This document shows, piece by piece, positions 1,761 through 42,347 of a stretch of DNA of 64,000 bases. This DNA comes from Novosphingobium sp. (lineage in GTDB: Bacteria > Pseudomonadota > Alphaproteobacteria > Sphingomonadales > Sphingomonadaceae). Location: assembly GCA_027311705.1 (NCBI GenBank), contig DAICYJ010000133.1, positions 2,217 through 66,216 on the forward strand, read 5' to 3'. Numbering within the stretch: position 1 is the first letter of the stretch; every line of letters begins with the position of its first letter. A model generated the notes under the pieces. It ran no database searches, was not told where the DNA came from, and worked only from the letters and a program-made list of their open reading frames with translations. A program made the translations under genes and the position numbers.

Positions 1761-3551
1761 ATGCAAGTCTATCAAGCCCCCTTGCGCGACATGCGCTTTG
1801 TTCTCGACGAGTTGCACAGCGACGATGGCTTCGGCGATCTTCCCGCGCTTTCCGAATTCACGCCCGAACTGACCACCGCCGTGATGGAGGAAGCCGCGCG
1901 CTTCGCCCAGGAGGTGCTGGCCCCGCTCAACCGGTCTGGCGACGAGCAAGGTTGCGTCCACGAAAACGGCGTGGTCCGCACCCCGGAAGGGTTCAAGGAT
2001 GCCTATCGCCAGTTTGCGGCAGGCGGCTGGACCGGGCTTGCCTCCGATCCCGCATGGGGCGGGCAGGGCCTGCCTGAAACCGTGAACAAGCTGGTCGAGG
2101 AGATGACCTGTTCGGCCAACCTGTCGTTCGGGCTCTATCCCGGCCTGTCGCACGGCGCGGCGACGGCGCTGGAAAGCCACGGCAGCGAGGATCTGAAGCG
2201 GCGCTATATGCCCAAGCTGGTGAGCGGCGAATGGTCGGGCACGATGTGCCTGACTGAGGCGCATTGCGGCACAGATATTGGCCTGCTGCGCACCCGCGCG
2301 GTGCCGCAGGCGGATGGCAGCTACAAGGTGACCGGATCGAAGATCTTCATTTCGGCGGGCGAGCATGACCTGACGCAGAACATCATCCATCTGGTGCTGG
2401 CGCGCATGCCCGATGCCGCGCCGGGCATTCGCGGCATCAGCCTGTTTCTGGTGCCCAAGTTCCTGCCGAACGAAGACGGCTCGCTTGGGCCATCCAACGG
2501 CGTTTCGTGCGGGGCGATCGAGCACAAGATGGGGCTGAAGGCCTCCGCCACATGCCAGATGAATTTCGACGAGGCCACCGGCTGGCTGATCGGCGAGGCG
2601 GGCAAGGGCATGGCAGCGATGTTCACGATGATGAACACCGAGCGTGTTTCGGTGGGCATTCAGGGCCTTGGAGTGGGCGAGGCGGCCTATCAGGCGGCGG
2701 TGTGGTATGCCAAGGACCGGCTGCAGGGCCGCTCGCTTTCAGGAACGAAGAACCCCGGCGGGCCTGCCGATCCGATCATCGTGCACCCCGATGTGCGCCG
2801 CATGTTGATGACGATGCGCGCCTTTAACGAAGGGTGCCGCGCGCTTTCGGGCTGGGTCTCGCGCGCGCTCGATGCCGAAAAGCATTCGACCGATCCCGAA
2901 GTGCAGCAGCGCGCCGCCGATTTCGTCGCGTTGATGACGCCGGTGGTGAAGGCGCTGTTCACCGATCTGGGCCACGAGAGCGCGCAACTGGCGATCCAGG
3001 TCTATGGCGGGCACGGCTACATCCGCGAAAGCGGGGTGGAGCAATATGCCCGCGATGCCCGCATCGCGATGATCTATGAAGGCACCAACGGCATTCAGGC
3101 GCTCGATCTGGTGGGGCGCAAGCTGGGAGCCAACACCGGACGCCTCCTGCGCAGCTTTTTCCACCCGGTTGCCAAGTTCATCGAGGAATCCGGCGGCGAA
3201 GGGCCGATGAAGCCGATGATCGACGCGCTGGGCAAGGCCTTCGGCGCGCTGCAGCTTTCGACCGCGACGATCGCGCAGCGCGGCATGGCAGACCCCGAAG
3301 AAGCGGGCGCGGCGGCGAGCGATTACCTGCGCCTGCTGGGGCTGGTGGCGATGGGATACTGCTTCGCCCGCGCCACCCGGATTGCCGGGCTGCAGCTGAT
3401 GTTCGGCAAGGAGGATAAGGCGTTCTACGATGCCAAGATCAAGACCGCGACCTTCTACTTCGAACGCATCCTGCCCGATGCGACGGCGCGTTTTCTGGCG
3501 ATCAAGGCCGGGAAGAAGTCGATGATGGCGCTGGACGCGGAGGCATTCTGA
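1761..3551 (+). CDS. acyl-CoA dehydrogenase
   Basis: GTMCLTE, GSKIFIS, EHKMG, GGHGYI and IYEGTNGIQALDL motifs. Confidence 0.95.
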   Translation: MQVYQAPLRDMRFVLDELHSDDGFGDLPALSEFTPELTTAVMEEAARFAQEVLAPLNRSGDEQGCVHENGVVRTPEGFKDAYRQFAAGGWTGLASDPAWGGQGLPETVNKLVEEMTCSANLSFGLYPGLSHGAATALESHGSEDLKRRYMPKLVSGEWSGTMCLTEAHCGTDIGLLRTRAVPQADGSYKVTGSKIFISAGEHDLTQNIIHLVLARMPDAAPGIRGISLFLVPKFLPNEDGSLGPSNGVSCGAIEHKMGLKASATCQMNFDEATGWLIGEAGKGMAAMFTMMNTERVSVGIQGLGVGEAAYQAAVWYAKDRLQGRSLSGTKNPGGPADPIIVHPDVRRMLMTMRAFNEGCRALSGWVSRALDAEKHSTDPEVQQRAADFVALMTPVVKALFTDLGHESAQLAIQVYGGHGYIRESGVEQYARDARIAMIYEGTNGIQALDLVGRKLGANTGRLLRSFFHPVAKFIEESGGEGPMKPMIDALGKAFGALQLSTATIAQRGMADPEEAGAAASDYLRLLGLVAMGYCFARATRIAGLQLMFGKEDKAFYDAKIKTATFYFERILPDATARFLAIKAGKKSMMALDAEAF

Positions 3552-5267: not shown

Positions 5268-6203
5268 CTATTTCCCCGGCTTGGCCAAGGCGGCCTTCGG
5301 CCACCATGTCAGCGTGTGCTTGTCGTGTGCGGAGGTCCACAGGCCGGATCTGGTATAGCGCAGTGCGCCGCTGCCCACGGCGCTGCCGAACCGGCCCTCG
5401 ATCGCCAGCGATTGCGGATTGATCACGACGAATTCCTGATCATCGGTGGTGCGCAGCCACACTTTGCCGGCGCCGGTATCGATGTCGCCCCACTTCAGGT
5501 TGTCGCCCACTTTCACGCGTCCGGTGACTGCGCGCGAAACTGGGTCGATGCGCGCGACCGTGCCATCGCCTTGTTCCTGCACCCACACCGCGCCTTCGCC
5601 GGCAGCGAGGAAGCCGGGTTGGGTGCCCAGCGGTGTCTTGCTCGCCACGGCATTCATCGCCGGGTCGATGCGTTGCAGCGATTGCTGCTTCGCGCTGACG
5701 GCCCAGACCGAACCGAAACCGAACGCGAGATACCATGTGCCCGGATCAACCGGCACCGATGCGATCACGCGGTTGCTGGCGGGATCGACCCGCGCGACCA
5801 CGCCCTTGTCGTCGCTCGCAACCCAGATCGATCCGTCCCCCGCGACGACATTCAATTCGCCGTCCGGATTGGCTATGCCGGTGGGGATGGTGGCGATGAT
5901 CTTTGCGGTGCGGATATCGATGCGGTTGAGCGTGCCGTCCTTGCAATCGGCGACCCACAGCGCGCCGTGGGCAATGGTCATCGCACCGCAGGGATGGGCC
6001 ATCGGCACTTCGGCCAGCTTGCCCTTGCGCGACCAGTGTTCGACGCGGCCCTTGTTGGTGGCCCACACCGTTTTGCCATCGATGGCGAGGAAATCGGCAA
6101 AGCCGGGGACGGGGATGACCTGCGCGCCTTTGGCCTGCGCGGCATAGGGGAGGAGCGCGCATGTGGCGACGGCGGCGGCGAGCAAAATCCGTAGGTTTTT
6201 CAT
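5268..6203 (-). CDS. secreted beta-propeller protein (Vgb/YncE-like)
   Basis: Signal peptide (AQA); repeated G-x-VWV...RID blades. Confidence 0.8.
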   Translation of the reverse strand: MKNLRILLAAAVATCALLPYAAQAKGAQVIPVPGFADFLAIDGKTVWATNKGRVEHWSRKGKLAEVPMAHPCGAMTIAHGALWVADCKDGTLNRIDIRTAKIIATIPTGIANPDGELNVVAGDGSIWVASDDKGVVARVDPASNRVIASVPVDPGTWYLAFGFGSVWAVSAKQQSLQRIDPAMNAVASKTPLGTQPGFLAAGEGAVWVQEQGDGTVARIDPVSRAVTGRVKVGDNLKWGDIDTGAGKVWLRTTDDQEFVVINPQSLAIEGRFGSAVGSGALRYTRSGLWTSAHDKHTLTWWPKAALAKPGK

Positions 6204-6228
6204 GCTGTTCCCCTGTGCAGGTCGGTGT

Positions 6229-7992
6229 CTAGCCGCGCTGGGCGATGAAGGCGCGCCAGCCGCCGAGCGCGGTGATATCCTGCGCGCCCGCCAGTGCGCG
6301 CGGTTCGGCGACGAAGCCTTTCACGCTGGTGCCATCCGAAAGCGTGACCGTGCCGATGGCCAGCGGCGGCGGCACATCGACGACGAAGCTGCCGAATTCG
6401 GCGACGCCCAGTTCATAGACTTCGAGCGCGATGGCGGCGCCGGTCTCGTCATAAATTAGCGCGGGCTTGGGCGGCACGCTGTCTGCCATGGCGTAGAGCT
6501 TGTAGGTGGGCGCGGTTTCGAAGGCGCCGACGAAGGTCGCGTTGCGCGAGGTCAGCTGCCAGTGCAGCGGCATGTCCTTCAGATGCGCGCCGACGACGGC
6601 GAGTTTCACGGTCTGCATTTTGCCCTCCAGATCGAGCGGGGGCGGGGGCGGAAGGTCCGCCACCGCGAGATAGGCGTCTGCCACATCGAGCAGCGCGCGG
6701 TCGCTGTCGGCAGGGCCGATCAGGGTGATGCCGAAGCCGGTGGCATTGGCGCGCTGCCCGGCGGGCACGCCAAGCGCCGCCATATCGAGCAGGTTCACGA
6801 AGTTGGTGTAGAACCCCAGGTTGCTGTTGAGCGCCACCGGGGCGGCGAGCAGTTCGGCGACGCGGTAGGTCGTGCCGGTGGTGGGGAAGGCGAGCAGGTC
6901 GAGCGAGGCCCACAGCGTATCAGCATGGCGCTTGATTTCGGCGAGGCGGTAGATGCCGTTGAACACGTCGACGCCGCTTTTGGCCCAGCCCTGTTCCACC
7001 ACGGTGCGTACCGTGGGGTCCACCGCATCGGGGTTGTCGGTTAGGATGGCAGACATCGCGGCCGTGCGTTCGGCCACCCATGGGCCGCCATAAAGCAGCT
7101 GCGCCGCCTCTTGCAGCGGGGCGATGTCGATCTCCACGATATCGGCCAGACCGGCAAGCATTTCCAGCGCGCGGTCATATAGGTATTCGGACTCCGCATC
7201 GCCGAACCACACGCGCTGGTCGCGGCGCGGCACGCCGATGGTCTTGCGGGCGATGGGGCGGTCGGCGAGTTCCTTTGACCACGGATCGGCGGGATCGAAA
7301 GCTGCCGCCACCTGATCGACGAGCCGGGCATCGGCCGTATCGTCGGTGAACACGGTGATGCAATCGAGCGTGCGGCAGGCGGGCACGAGGCCGCTTGTGC
7401 TCCACCGGCCCTTGGTGGGCTTGAAGCCGATCAGGTGGTTGAACGCGGCGGGAACGCGGCCCGATCCGGCGGTGTCCGTTCCCAGCGCGAAGGGCACCAG
7501 CCCGGCGGCGACGGCGATGGACGAACCGGAACTCGATCCGCCGCTGACGTAGGCGAGATTGCTGGCGTTGCGCGGAATGCCATAGGGGCTGCGCGTGCCG
7601 ACAAGGCCGGTGGCGAACTGATCCAGGTTGGTCTTGCCGACGCAGATCGCGCCTGCCGCCAGCAGTCGCTCGACCACGGTGGAGGACGTTTCGGGCGTGT
7701 AGGCGAAGACGGGGCAGGCGGCGGTCGTCTGGAACCCGGCGACGTCGATATTGTCCTTGGCGGCAAAGGGAACGCCGGCCATCGGCAGGACTTCGCCGAC
7801 CGCAACGCGCGCATCGATGGCGGTGGCGGCGGCCAGCAGGGTTTCGGGCGAGGCGCGGCTGATCCAGATTTGCGGCTGGACGGCATCATAGGCGGCGATG
7901 CGGGCCAGTGTTTCCTGCATCGCTGCGACGGCGCTGGTCCGCCTTGCGTTCACGGCGGCGGCCATGGCGGTGGCGCTCAGGCGCGCGGTCAT
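6229..7992 (-). CDS. atzF: allophanate hydrolase
   Basis: Amidase signature (KDNID, GKTNLDQFATGLVGTRSPYG, GGSSSGS, GTDTAGSGRVP) plus C-terminal AVVGAH domain; ATGA overlap with uca. Confidence 0.95.
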   Translation of the reverse strand: MTARLSATAMAAAVNARRTSAVAAMQETLARIAAYDAVQPQIWISRASPETLLAAATAIDARVAVGEVLPMAGVPFAAKDNIDVAGFQTTAACPVFAYTPETSSTVVERLLAAGAICVGKTNLDQFATGLVGTRSPYGIPRNASNLAYVSGGSSSGSSIAVAAGLVPFALGTDTAGSGRVPAAFNHLIGFKPTKGRWSTSGLVPACRTLDCITVFTDDTADARLVDQVAAAFDPADPWSKELADRPIARKTIGVPRRDQRVWFGDAESEYLYDRALEMLAGLADIVEIDIAPLQEAAQLLYGGPWVAERTAAMSAILTDNPDAVDPTVRTVVEQGWAKSGVDVFNGIYRLAEIKRHADTLWASLDLLAFPTTGTTYRVAELLAAPVALNSNLGFYTNFVNLLDMAALGVPAGQRANATGFGITLIGPADSDRALLDVADAYLAVADLPPPPPLDLEGKMQTVKLAVVGAHLKDMPLHWQLTSRNATFVGAFETAPTYKLYAMADSVPPKPALIYDETGAAIALEVYELGVAEFGSFVVDVPPPLAIGTVTLSDGTSVKGFVAEPRALAGAQDITALGGWRAFIAQRG

Positions 7993-38580: not shown

Positions 38581-39354
38581 ATGCAAAGCCTGCCCTTGTT
38601 CCACCGCATCGCCGGCCAGCCGGTGATCGTGCTGGGGCAGGGCGAGGCGGCAGATGCCAAGCGCCGGCTGGTCGAGCGGGCCGGGGGGAGGGTGGTCGAA
38701 GAACTTGCCGAAGGCATCGACATCGGCGCGCGGCTGGCGTTCATCGCGCATGAGGACGAGGCTGCGGCGCAGGCCGATGCCATTCGCGCGCGCTGCGCCG
38801 GGCTGCTCGTCAACGTCGTCGACCGCCCGGCGCTGTGCGATTTTACGGTGCCTTCGCTGGTGGACCGCGATCCGGTGATCATCGCCGTGGGCACCGGTGG
38901 CGCGTCTGCAGGGCTGGCCAAGGCGCTGCGCCTGCGGCTGGAACGCCTGCTGCCGCAGCGATTGGGTGCCTTGGCCGAGGCGCTGTTTGCCGCGCGCCCC
39001 GCAATCCGCGAGCGTTGGACCGGGGGCAGCGATCGCCGGCGTGCTCTCGATGCCGCGCTGGATGAAGGCGGAGCGCTTGATCCCTTTCGCGAAGGAGCGG
39101 CGCAACAGGTGCCTGCGTGGCTGGCGGGTGACGATGGCGCTCTGGCAGGACGCTTCACCATCCGCCTGCGCTCGAATGATCCCGACGACCTGACGGTACG
39201 CGAAGCGCGCCTTTTGGGTCAGGCCGACGCGGTCATTGTCAAAGGGGCAGTTTCGCCCGCCATCCTTGCACGCGCCCGCGCCGATGCCGCGCGGTTGCTG
39301 CCGGACGATCCTGCGCCGCAAATCGGAATTGTGGTCGCAATTGAAGCGGCTTAG
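38581..39354 (+). CDS. precorrin-2 dehydrogenase / sirohydrochlorin ferrochelatase (CysG N-terminal-like)
   Basis: SLPLF, VNVVDRPALCDF, GTGGAS; truncated DPDDLT methylase-like tail. Confidence 0.85.
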   Translation: MQSLPLFHRIAGQPVIVLGQGEAADAKRRLVERAGGRVVEELAEGIDIGARLAFIAHEDEAAAQADAIRARCAGLLVNVVDRPALCDFTVPSLVDRDPVIIAVGTGGASAGLAKALRLRLERLLPQRLGALAEALFAARPAIRERWTGGSDRRRALDAALDEGGALDPFREGAAQQVPAWLAGDDGALAGRFTIRLRSNDPDDLTVREARLLGQADAVIVKGAVSPAILARARADAARLLPDDPAPQIGIVVAIEAA

Positions 39355-39752
39355 GCCTTCTTCGGCGCCAACAGAAAGTTGATCCAGCCGCTGGCTACCA
39401 GCTTGTCACGGTCGGCCTGCCACGCCTCGACCCGCACGTTGGCCACGCGCCGTCCGGTGCGGATCACCTGCCCCAGCGCGAATGTCCGCTGGGGGGTGCC
39501 GCCGCGCAAGAATTCGATGGTGATGTTCACCGGCTTCAACTGCATGCCCTGCGCATCCTCCGCCAGTTCGGCGTAGAGTGCGACGTAGGCTGCGATTTCA
39601 AGCATTCCGCCAATCGCGCCGCCGTGGAGATAGCCGGGCCGCCCCTGCGCCCGCACTGCGAAATCCATCGCCACCACGGGCGTGCCGTCTGCAAGCCGGT
39701 CGATTTCCATGCCCATGGCGCGGGCATACGGAGGAAGCTTGCTCTGGCTCAT
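39351..39752 (-). CDS. PaaI family thioesterase
   Basis: GYLHGGAIGGMLE hotdog-fold motif. Confidence 0.85.
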   Translation of the reverse strand: MSQSKLPPYARAMGMEIDRLADGTPVVAMDFAVRAQGRPGYLHGGAIGGMLEIAAYVALYAELAEDAQGMQLKPVNITIEFLRGGTPQRTFALGQVIRTGRRVANVRVEAWQADRDKLVASGWINFLLAPKKA

Positions 39753-40228
39753 GCGCGGGCGGCCTGTTCGCTGTCGATCAGCATGAAGATGCCGGCGGCA
39801 TGAGCGACCGGATCGGTCGGATCGCCATCGTGCGCCACGCCGCGCACGAACGCCATGCTGCGGCGCACCTGATAACATTCGCAGCGGGCGACCACGGTCT
39901 TGCCGGGCTGTGCCGCGCGAACGTAGTCGATCCGCAAGTCCAGCGTGACATGCGGGGTAAAACCGCCACGCCGCGCCCAGACCGACAGCGACGTGCAGTT
40001 ATCGAGCAGGCTGATGACCGGCCCCGACGCCAAAACGCCGGTTTCCTCAACGCCGACAAGATCTTCACGCCACGGCAGCGCGGTTTCGACCCAGTCGTCA
40101 CCATGCGCCAGATACGTCAAGCCCAGGAATTCGTTGTGGCCAAGCTTGCATGCCAGCGCGGCAATCCCGGCAAGGTCGAACGGTGCCTTTTCAATGGCAG
40201 GCGACGGGCGTTCGGGTGCATCATCCAT
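39749..40228 (-). CDS. PaaI family thioesterase
   Basis: GVLASG...LLD, TLDLRIDYVR. Confidence 0.85.
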   Translation of the reverse strand: MDDAPERPSPAIEKAPFDLAGIAALACKLGHNEFLGLTYLAHGDDWVETALPWREDLVGVEETGVLASGPVISLLDNCTSLSVWARRGGFTPHVTLDLRIDYVRAAQPGKTVVARCECYQVRRSMAFVRGVAHDGDPTDPVAHAAGIFMLIDSEQAARA

Positions 40229-40346
40229 GGCGCCTTGGTGCAGTTCACGCGGGCCGATTACAACCTTTTAATTTCCCAGCGCAGGCCATGCGACGCACAT
40301 TCCAGAGGCCGGCAGGACGCCGGTTTTTCCATGGAGGACCAAAGGG

Positions 40347-40496
40347 ATGGAATTACCCAAGCTTTCACTTGCGGCGCTGCCGCAGCTCGCCACCGCGACC
40401 GGCGTTTACGGCAGCACCGCCGAACGAAAAGGTCCGCTCGCGCTGGCCAGCGACCTGATCATCGTGATGATGGTCTATTCCTACAAGAAACCGTGA
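40347..40496 (+). CDS. 49-aa small peptide, candidate RiPP precursor (MELPKLSLAALPQLATATGVYGSTAERKGPLALASDLIIVMMVYSYKKP)
   Basis: GGAGG RBS at 40333-40337, ATG 40347, TGA 40494-40496; 19 bp before the next gene; below the ORF-track size cutoff. Confidence 0.75.
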   Translation: MELPKLSLAALPQLATATGVYGSTAERKGPLALASDLIIVMMVYSYKKP

Positions 40497-40515
40497 CCTT
40501 CGGGGAGCCGGCATT

Positions 40516-41463
40516 ATGCGCATCGACACCACCCTTGCTGCCTTGCGCGATGATCCGGCTCCTGTAATCCGCGCCGCCGATGCGGCAGACGCGGCACTGG
40601 CCCGATGGCGCACCACACCCGCTGCGGCGCGCCTGCTGGCGGAACTTGCCGCCTATGGCGCGGGCGGGGATCTGCGGGAATGCCCGCACCTGTCGAACTT
40701 GATGGGCAATGGCGATGCCGGGGCAGTCCACACGATGCTGGCGGACTTGTGCACTGTGTTGGCGGATCATCCGCTGGGCCAGCCGGCGCTGGCTGCCACG
40801 CGTTCGGCGGGGGCGTGCCGGATGACGCTGGCGTCCGCAGGCCGGGCCTCGCTGTCACTGGCGCTGGCGGAGCCGACACGTTGCGATGCCGATGCGCCCG
40901 ATCATGCCGTGTTCGGTGGCGGCCAGATGCAACTTCGCGTCCTTGCCGGCGCGGCGCGGGGATTTCTCGCCAGTCGCGATGGCGAATTGGTGCCGGTTCA
41001 ACTGGCCACCGGGTTCGCCTGCGCGCTCGATCTCGATCGGCGGACGCTGGAACTGGCGGAGGTGGACAGCCCGCTGGTGACGCTGCGGCTGCACCGGCGT
41101 GCAGCGGATGCAGGCGTGCTTCAGGACATTGCGCTCACCGATGGAGCGGTGCTGGCGCAATCGGCGGACGACCCGCGCGAAAGCCGGATCGAGATGGCGA
41201 TGGCTCTGCTGGGCCGCATGGGCCGCACCGATGCGGCCCCGATACTCGCCGCCTGTTCGCGTGAAGGCAGCGCGCCGCGCCGCTGGCAGGCGCTGCGCGA
41301 ATGCCTCGCGCTCGATACCGCCACAGGATTTGCCGCGCTGCTGGAAACGATGGAGCGGCCGGACGATCCCCTGCGCGCCGATGCGCGCGCGCTGGCTGAA
41401 GCGTTGGCATCGCAACACCCCGCGCTCGCGCGCATGATGGAGGATGTCACATGCCCCGCGTGA
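40516..41463 (+). CDS. degenerate cupin-like + HEAT-repeat protein
   Basis: GGGAG RBS; beta-rich core without HxH; HEAT-like C-terminus (MALLGRMGR...RWQALRECLAL). Confidence 0.75.
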   Translation: MRIDTTLAALRDDPAPVIRAADAADAALARWRTTPAAARLLAELAAYGAGGDLRECPHLSNLMGNGDAGAVHTMLADLCTVLADHPLGQPALAATRSAGACRMTLASAGRASLSLALAEPTRCDADAPDHAVFGGGQMQLRVLAGAARGFLASRDGELVPVQLATGFACALDLDRRTLELAEVDSPLVTLRLHRRAADAGVLQDIALTDGAVLAQSADDPRESRIEMAMALLGRMGRTDAAPILAACSREGSAPRRWQALRECLALDTATGFAALLETMERPDDPLRADARALAEALASQHPALARMMEDVTCPA

Positions 41464-42347
41464 TCGATTTCGCCACGCCGCCCGCATCCATCAGCCTTGC
41501 CGAATGCGCAAACCGGCTCGCCACGCGCGGGTTCGATCCTGCCGACGAGGACAGCCTGCTGGCCGGGGCGGAAGCGCTCAAGGCGCTGGGCGGCAACCCC
41601 ACATTCCTGGGCGATCTGCTGATCGACAACCTCAAGGCAGGATATCGCGACGAAGCCACCAACGCCTATGGCCCCCAAGTGGTCATGCTGGCCAATCCCG
41701 CCGACGACTGTTTCCTGCGCGCGAACATCTGGCCCTCTCGCGAAGACGGGATGCTGGCAGCCAGCGGCGGCGATGCATTTGCCTTCGCCATGCCGCACGA
41801 TCACAACTTCAGCTTCCTGACGCTGGGCTATTTCGGCCCCGGTTATTGGAGCGACTATTACGAGTTCGACTACGAGGATGTGGCGGGCTGGACCGGCGAG
41901 CCGGTCGACCTGCGCTTCACCGAACGCGCGCGGCTCTCGCCCGGCAAGGTATTGCTTTATCGCGCGCACCGCGACGTCCACGTGCAGCACCCGGCCGACG
42001 CGCTTTCTGTGTCGATCAACGTGATGCACACCGCGCCGCATCAGAACTGGTTCGACCAGTACTCCTTCGACACCAGTACCCGCACCGTCAGCGGGATCGT
42101 GACGCAAGGCGCGAGCGAGGTGGCGCTGCGGCTGGCCGTGGCGTTGGGGATAGGCGAGGGGCAGGACGTCGCGCGCGACTTAGCCCGCCATCATCCCAGC
42201 GACCGGATGCGGCTGGCGGCGTGGGAAGCGCTTGCGGGCGGAGCGCCCGATCTTGCATCTCGTGATGCGGTGTGGCGCGATGCCGAACGTACCGGCAACC
42301 GCATGGTGGCGGGCGAGGCCGCGCGGCGGCGGCGGGAACTGGCCTAG
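41451..42347 (+). CDS. cupin metalloenzyme (cysteine-dioxygenase-like 3-His site) + HEAT repeat
   Basis: PHDHNFSFLT...DVHVQHP...SVSINV; C-terminal HHPSDRMRLAAWEAL; GGAGG RBS, overlaps the upstream gene. Confidence 0.8.
   Translation: MPRVIDFATPPASISLAECANRLATRGFDPADEDSLLAGAEALKALGGNPTFLGDLLIDNLKAGYRDEATNAYGPQVVMLANPADDCFLRANIWPSREDGMLAASGGDAFAFAMPHDHNFSFLTLGYFGPGYWSDYYEFDYEDVAGWTGEPVDLRFTERARLSPGKVLLYRAHRDVHVQHPADALSVSINVMHTAPHQNWFDQYSFDTSTRTVSGIVTQGASEVALRLAVALGIGEGQDVARDLARHHPSDRMRLAAWEALAGGAPDLASRDAVWRDAERTGNRMVAGEAARRRRELA

Follow-up and report, generated by a model that had tools for sequence, protein, structure and literature searches.

What is the role of a gene for a 49-residue peptide that stands at the head of an operon whose two other products both find their best structural matches among thiol dioxygenases? 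We addressed this question for a three-gene locus within a 64,000-nucleotide stretch of Novosphingobium sp. DNA (assembly GCA_027311705.1, contig DAICYJ010000133.1, positions 2,217 to 66,216; this entire stretch is referred to as the window, and coordinates without a locus handle are numbered from its first letter). A preliminary description of the locus had proposed that the peptide is a hidden precursor, oxidatively modified by a cupin enzyme acting with a partner protein, in the manner of a ribosomally made peptide that is modified after translation (RiPP). The explanation that we favor, at a confidence that falls somewhat short of even, is that the three genes form one peptide-directed non-haem-iron oxygenase module in which the peptide is modified under leader guidance. 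Chemical modification of the peptide is itself a point that we infer.

All three genes lie on the plus strand. The peptide open reading frame (ORF) occupies positions 40347-40496 in both the ORF list and the raw sequence, and a Shine-Dalgarno motif, GGAGG, can be read directly at 40333-40337 (+), 9 nt 5' of the ATG. A 19-bp gap separates it from gene 2 (40516-41463, 315 aa), which in turn overlaps gene 3 (41451-42347, 298 aa) by 13 bp, and translational coupling of gene 3 to gene 2 in the window is strongly supported. The neighbors on either side are read from the minus strand, with a hotdog thioesterase (PF03061) at 39749-40228 on one side and ruvX from 42344 on the other. Every element of the layout in the preliminary description was recovered from the sequence, including the PHDH...DVH motifs of gene 3, and its view of the three genes as a self-contained unit bounded by oppositely oriented genes was borne out by synteny. 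None of the three proteins gave a match above the cut-off in Pfam or NCBIfam scans.

The first matter to settle was whether the small ORF is a gene. Gene 3 was present in 16 of the 24 other Novosphingobium genomes that we examined, and in all 16 carriers it came after a small-ORF homologue and a homologue of gene 2, in the same order, with genes 2 and 3 nearly always overlapping or abutting. Scanning one genome per species brought up at least 575 loci. We examined the best 80, of which 75 had sufficient upstream DNA, and in each of these 75 the small ORF was found exactly once. Its start codon was ATG in every case and a purine-rich Shine-Dalgarno sequence was present in all but one (74/75), while 74 of 76 peptide sequences were distinct. 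The peptide is built of a conserved N block, a variable linker, a conserved C block and a variable tail. The N block (residues 1-23) has the consensus MNLPKIDxSALPDLDTLTGxFGS, and the C block consensus, SDDxIxIxMVFxYE, consists of an acidic residue followed by an aliphatic/aromatic run. Ratios of nonsynonymous to synonymous substitution rates, calculated by the Nei-Gojobori method on a codon alignment, came to 0.14 and 0.25 for the two conserved blocks (N and C, respectively), whereas the variable parts gave 0.74 (linker) and approximately 1.2 (tail). Taken as sequence evidence, this synteny and purifying selection strongly support the small ORF as a gene that is translated, under selection and inherited together with genes 2 and 3. 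The question of whether a short ORF always precedes the pair can thus be answered affirmatively for the 75 loci and the 16 congeneric carriers, and, as described below, for other genera. The ORF had been called hidden, which holds insofar as it was missed owing to its small size; however, the peptide is already contained in 883 database clusters, of which those with source names are called 'hypothetical protein' and none has a Pfam domain.

The copy in the window is among the most divergent of its family, a circumstance that bears on the residues singled out at the outset. The Y-x-Y near its C-terminus had been put forward as a target of cross-linking or hydroxylation, and it is absent from most orthologues, where the consensus retains one aromatic residue, Y followed by E or D; Y-x-Y was rejected as the modification site for this lack of conservation. 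Oxidation of methionine, the other candidate offered, fares no better, as the Met is lost in distant loci. Cysteine was likewise rejected, there being no conserved Cys in the peptide. As a separate observation, beyond the C block about 12 of the 76 peptides (L043, L063, L087, L092, L094, L100, L115, L116 and others) end in a recurrent tail, P-x-x-G-L-(F/L/I), where the window peptide has KKP at its end.

We then considered gene 3, the presumed catalytic subunit. In its AlphaFold2 model (predicted local distance difference test, pLDDT, 87) a cupin barrel stands between three helices at the N-terminus and five at the C-terminus. Residues 9-219 superpose on thiol dioxygenases over their full length, including the N-terminal helices (Foldseek E 7e-8, VIA-align), and the top 50 VIA matches were all CDO, 3MDO, MSDO, PCO, ADO or ergothioneine dioxygenase. 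The best of these, 4tlf, aligned over 158 residues with a Z score of 13.5, a root-mean-square deviation (rmsd) of 3.2 A and 22% identity. The PHDH motif corresponds to residues 115-118 and DVH to residues 175-177, and among 125 full-length family representatives H116 is retained in 124 and H118 and H177 in 123 each; W94, G131, Y132, D175, Q179 and S186 are also nearly invariant. The series PHDH...DVH...SVSINVM is collinear with IHDH...DIH...SISIHVY of CDO-family proteins from related genomes, and H116/H118/H177 with their H97/H99/H150, in an alignment that did not reach significance (hhalign E 0.33). Because that comparison is not significant, membership in the family rests on fold and motifs. 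Searches by sequence were otherwise negative: gene 3 matched no Pfam family at E values up to 1, CDO_I (PF05995) found nothing in the window's genome, and a sequence-profile search of the PDB returned chance matches only. The model and the motif conservation nonetheless strongly support gene 3 as a cysteine-dioxygenase-type 3-His cupin by fold, with a putative metal site, as the preliminary description had supposed.

Database names for this family point elsewhere, since relatives of gene 3 (P0004, P0007, P0020 and P0021) are labelled 'transposase' in NCBI/nr and in Atlas cluster names. No Pfam or NCBIfam transposase model matched gene 3, and its predicted fold is a cupin with helical repeats; the label is a propagated misannotation.

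The presence of PCO and ADO among the fold matches of gene 3 (Z 10.4-11.7) raises, by analogy with those oxygen-sensing enzymes, an improbable alternative in which the module is a sensor, such that an O2-, iron- or redox-dependent change at the gene 3 metal site, or oxidation of the peptide, would be read as a signal. A 901-aa relative in which the gene 3 domain is fused to TPR-S and an adenylate/guanylate cyclase domain is in keeping with such a role. However, this was the only fusion to an output domain among those seen, the window locus has no regulator or output domain, and the peptide lacks the N-terminal Cys typical of PCO and ADO substrates.

The product of gene 2 turned out to be a look-alike of gene 3 without its metal ligands. 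Its AlphaFold2 model (pLDDT 86) has the same three-part architecture of N-terminal helices, cupin and C-terminal HEAT-like helical repeats, and both models end in 5-6 helices. Its best structural matches were again thiol dioxygenases, with CDO first (Z 9.8, rmsd 3.8 A, 153 residues), more weakly than for gene 3. The gene 2 alignment has no invariant His, Cys or Glu, and the most conserved motifs (LRLQRR, DSRxEL, LLGRMGR and RWQALRE) fall in the last strands and the helical domain. Against HEAT_2 the protein scored 15.4 bits, below the cut-off of 27.7, and weak HEAT_2 matches recur among distant homologues. The partner protein of cupin and helical-repeat architecture that had been described earlier is therefore upheld, with the addition that it has no conserved metal ligands, and it is strongly supported that gene 2 encodes a protein of the same architecture as gene 3 that has lost them. 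Because a profile-profile comparison of the two was not significant (hhalign E 0.34), paralogy of genes 2 and 3 is something that we infer from their shared modelled fold and architecture.

Genes 2 and 3 also behave as a unit in evolution. Five gene 2-gene 3 fusion proteins were found. One of them, of 655 aa, is represented by five member sequences and two contigs, lies in a lysA/NAD_binding_7 neighborhood as in the window, and still has a gene of its own for a 48-aa peptide ahead of it. These fusions provide strong, independent support for the view that genes 2 and 3 work as one unit from which the peptide is separate. Another candidate, P0199 (520 aa), was not counted, as it looks like a frameshifted read-through. 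A fusion of another kind is the 901-aa relative mentioned above (P0132, L125:1041-3746), in which the domain joined to gene 3 through TPR-S is an adenylate/guanylate cyclase catalytic domain; it is found on contigs from two sequencing runs, with a gene 2 homologue directly upstream, and the contig ends before a possible peptide gene.

Across divergent lineages the peptide and gene 2 change jointly, and much faster than gene 3. In the same lineages the gene 2 score falls from 228-335 to 49-77 bits and that of gene 3 only from 411-442 to 303-309 bits, while the peptide becomes undetectable or is found in part.

Having assigned folds to the two proteins, we examined a predicted complex in which the three chains were folded together, with the peptide as the scored partner, from our own alignments and alongside three controls. 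The peptide scored 0.86, whereas the best of the three controls scored 0.00. Of 80 solved complexes 58 attained that mark, as did 2 of 110 mismatched pairs, counts that serve only as a rough guide for a prediction with its own alignments and three chains. The runs shared at least 69% of their contacts, and the pLDDT of the partner was at least 63. Because we know of no similar complex, it seems unlikely that this outcome reflects a memorised solved structure. In the contacts with the lowest error, residues 6-21 of the peptide meet gene 2 at its residues 215-223, which cover the last strand and first helix, and at 254-268, in the RWQALRE helix, and the confident interface further includes barrel-lining residues of gene 2 and residues 74-76, 100-109, 194 and 198 of gene 3. 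Most of the confident contacts are carried by gene 2, and when an unrelated protein took its place the score dropped to 0.00. The N block of the peptide is thus predicted to dock on the product of gene 2, which we regard as a predicted peptide-binding pseudo-enzyme. Co-folding had been suggested as a way of seeing whether the C-terminal segment enters the metal site; the leader-like N-terminal block was indeed placed, on gene 2, but the C-terminal segment was not confidently positioned.

These elements suggest how a peptide-modifying module would work. The conserved N block would dock on the C-terminal helical repeats and cupin edge of gene 2, in the style of a leader on its recognition subunit. 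The flexible linker would then present the C block, with its acidic residue and its run of Ile, Val, Met, Phe and Tyr, to the iron site of gene 3, where it would be oxidized with O2; hydroxylation, cross-linking and cleavage are candidate reactions. In Novosphingobium the modified peptide would stay in the cell, and in relatives with ABC or membrane genes it may be exported. It is the anatomy as a whole, namely a docking block on a ligand-less receptor, a freely evolving linker, a second selected block and an oxygenase with its 3-His site intact, that makes a leader-guided system the best explanation, and the short precursor-like gene is adjacent to, and co-inherited with, the enzyme genes.

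Several results weigh against a modified peptide. The model of the complex lists just residues 39 and 44 from the C block region, the block as a whole being without confident placement, and conservation at contact residues is barely above that elsewhere (p = 0.05 for gene 2; 0.10 and 0.27 otherwise). The C block retains its character throughout the family, but no single residue of it is conserved family-wide. The fold relatives of gene 3 act on thiols and the peptide has no conserved Cys, while the Ser-His-Tyr triad of CDO and 3MDO is not kept, the residues aligned with it in gene 3, by the non-significant alignment, being S188, N190 and M192. In many genomes the module occupies a stable chromosomal site beside ruvX, a setting that one would sooner expect of a housekeeping gene than of a secondary-metabolite cluster. 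Finally, there is no protease or exporter in the window locus by the ORF list, as the preliminary description had also stated, and no C39 peptidase in the 83.6%-complete genome. The latter result, in that incomplete assembly, also told against a double-glycine leader with PCAT export, a candidate considered for the N block because it ends in G-S. The RiPP-like reading therefore stands in part: the logic of enzyme, dead partner and peptide fits, but Y-x-Y is not conserved and neither is any Cys.

Many of the same results suit the main rival explanation, which we consider unlikely, though well worth entertaining. In it the peptide would be built permanently and unmodified into a heteromeric thiol-dioxygenase-like enzyme, as a third subunit serving as clamp, lid or assembly factor, and the enzyme would act on a small molecule, for example a thiol such as cysteamine/pantetheine, 3-mercaptopropionate or a persulfide. 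The N block would then sit on the gene 2 product and the hydrophobic C block would be buried in or against the gene 3 product. The closest folds are all thiol-acting and mostly on small molecules, the peptide offers no conserved nucleophile, Cys or universally conserved C-block residue to modify, and its single-copy gene keeps a stable position by ruvX with no protease or exporter nearby. The contacts that the modelled peptide makes with residues 74-76 and 100-109 of gene 3 point the same way. A permanent subunit sits less easily with the hypervariable linker and tail around the conserved blocks, which are more typical of a tethered substrate, or with a C block that does not dock confidently; the loss of the carboxylate- and thiol-handling triad of CDO and 3MDO also tells against it, as do the ABC or membrane genes added in distant loci, described next.

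The module extends well beyond the genus. A profile search with gene 3 yielded 897 clusters at 50% identity. In a 400-genome sample drawn across the phylum, gene 3 turned up in 9 of the 15 members of the same family and in only 2 of the other genomes. In other genera an ORF of 37-55 aa still occupies the place 5' of gene 2, and this extends to metagenomic loci in which gene 3 identity is down to 29-34%. These distant small ORFs have lost sequence similarity but not their character: the N half is polar/acidic, the middle contains Gly, and an acidic residue leads into a run rich in Ile/Val. Some distant loci have additional genes. A protein with 2-4 transmembrane segments and of no known family lies 3' of gene 3 in three loci (L032:4561-5436, L130:5895-6734 and L131:3926-4471), followed by an SDR gene in the first two, and in another (L123:1494-2889) an ABC ATPase gene overlaps the end of gene 3 and precedes a polytopic membrane protein.

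These membrane proteins, together with the aliphatic run in which every version of the peptide ends (about 21 hydrophobic residues in one distant copy), bear on a further and highly improbable alternative, that the peptide is membrane-active or membrane-anchoring and that the two proteins chaperone it, confer immunity to it or are held at the membrane through it. In Novosphingobium, however, the run measures only about 11-12 residues with charged flanks. No 19-residue window of the peptide reaches the hydropathy threshold of a transmembrane segment, and a transmembrane anchor was accordingly rejected for the window peptide. A chaperone role would also leave the invariant 3-His site of gene 3 without explanation.

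Two distant loci are described here in their own right. L121, from an AT-rich complete genome, has a gene 2-gene 3 pair with no adjoining small ORF. Around the pair are three paralogous ORFs of 43-52 aa, at L121:2200-2331(-), 3161-3319(+) and 6117-6272(-), which have LENNxSIxxNGTPVF in common and differ in their tails, these being partly Pro/Arg-rich. A trypsin-like protease and an ABC exporter are encoded nearby on the opposite strand. In L035:2574-6931, from a genome of another class, a small ORF, a gene 2-like gene and a gene 3-like gene are co-oriented directly 3' of an HlyD/AcrB-type RND efflux pair, and a 2-oxoglutarate oxygenase gene and a catalase-like gene lie further downstream.

A comparison with characterized systems helps to place the module. 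The thiol dioxygenases (CDO, 3MDO, MSDO and PCO/ADO) resemble gene 3 in superposing as whole enzymes and in having HxH...H in the same order at similar spacing, with local motifs of IHDH and D-I-H where gene 3 has PHDH and D-V-H; moreover, peptides are within reach of this fold, as PCO and ADO demonstrate. Gene 3 differs from them in having no match to Pfam CDO_I, in not keeping the Ser-His-Tyr triad, and in having an extra C-terminal five-helix domain, an obligate ligand-less and paralogue-like partner and a dedicated Cys-free peptide. Among RiPP pathways, pairs with a non-catalytic, leader-holding protein include MNIO enzymes with their partners (MbnBC and TglHI) and YcaO with an inactive E1-like protein. 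As in these, the parts would be a short precursor gene in first place, a recognition protein and a metallo-oxidase, in that order, and the N block is predicted by the model to bind the non-catalytic protein. The folds differ, as the module has no RiPP recognition element (RRE), DUF692 or YcaO, and its recognition protein is apparently a degenerate copy of the enzyme. The cofactors PQQ (from PqqA) and mycofactocin (from MftA) are derived from peptides and remain intracellular. Their operons too are compact, lack exporters and are led by a small precursor gene, the intracellular product being only a proposal for the module here; their pathways, unlike the module in the window, use radical-SAM enzymes, dedicated peptidases and strictly conserved target residues.

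Cupin-type enzymes have been described in RiPP pathways. TcaO dihydroxylates Ile in thiocupinamide (bioRxiv 10.64898/2026.01.07.698260), and PbsQ/BpmG are cupin-fold enzymes that hydroxylate ornithine (PMC12257519). These are tailoring enzymes of the JmjC/2-oxoglutarate type, pfam08007 or JmjC-related (bioRxiv 10.64898/2026.01.07.698260; PMC12257519); TcaO has an accessory part in a thioamitide cluster that contains a YcaO (bioRxiv 10.64898/2026.01.07.698260), and PbsQ belongs to an MNIO/radical-SAM cluster (PMC12257519). The likeness to TcaO lies in the oxidation of unactivated Ile, the residue type that dominates the C block here. By their descriptions, TcaO and PbsQ/BpmG differ from the present system, in which a 3-His enzyme of the thiol-dioxygenase fold has its own partner and its own precursor. 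Literature searches on cupins or thiol dioxygenases with RiPPs or precursor peptides found no description of such a module, and nothing that joins a thiol-dioxygenase-fold enzyme, a pseudo-enzyme partner and a dedicated peptide. The module is uncharacterized.

Upstream of the operon, an AT-rich 20-bp box lies within the GC-rich intergenic region at 40256-40275 (+), 71 nt 5' of the peptide ATG. It reads GATTACAACCTTTTAATTTC in the window (also written GATTACAAYCTTTTAATTTC) and has the consensus GATTACAATCTTTTAATTTC. The box was found in 66 of 75 related loci, 66-86 nt from the ATG (mode 70), and 4 of the 9 loci without it had less than 100 nt of upstream DNA. Its probable role is that of a promoter or operator, either for the operon or for the divergent thioesterase gene. 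The box itself matched no sigma-70 consensus and no Rfam family, and a consensus scan found no sigma-70-like promoter and no intrinsic terminator. With up to 3 mismatches allowed, no second copy was found in the window's genome, and the idea of a regulon motif was dropped for this single occurrence.

The thioesterase gene is one of two tandem hotdog-fold thioesterase genes, at 39351-40228 (-), that are divergent from the operon. The first of them adjoins the module in other genera as well, including some with very divergent peptides (L026 and L027). A functional link between thioesterase and module is possible. Thioesterases release the thiol of coenzyme A (CoA), and a CoA-thiol connection drawn from this recurrent neighbor would lend some support to a permanent subunit of a small-molecule enzyme.

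Returning to a leader-guided oxygenase module, the boldest form of this explanation is speculative, and we consider it doubtful though attractive. The locus may be the founding example of a new class of modification of ribosomal peptides, in which a 3-His iron enzyme of the thiol-dioxygenase fold, guided by its catalytically dead paralogue as leader receptor, would oxidize an aliphatic/aromatic, Cys-free segment of the peptide, giving an intracellular peptide-derived factor in Sphingomonadaceae and an exported product in relatives with ABC or membrane genes. If this is true, oxidation of a Cys-free segment would be a chemistry not known for the thiol-dioxygenase fold. If the peptide is instead a subunit, the complex would be a heterotrimeric thiol dioxygenase, a form for which our literature searches found no precedent. 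Whichever reading holds, the database name 'transposase' should be corrected. The module is widespread and has no Pfam or NCBIfam model, its peptide gene is smaller than common ORF cut-offs allow, and its enzyme goes by that name in public records. If the peptide is a substrate, it would represent a new substrate class for the thiol-dioxygenase fold, and probably new chemistry, and RiPP mining would gain an enzyme-plus-pseudo-enzyme signature.

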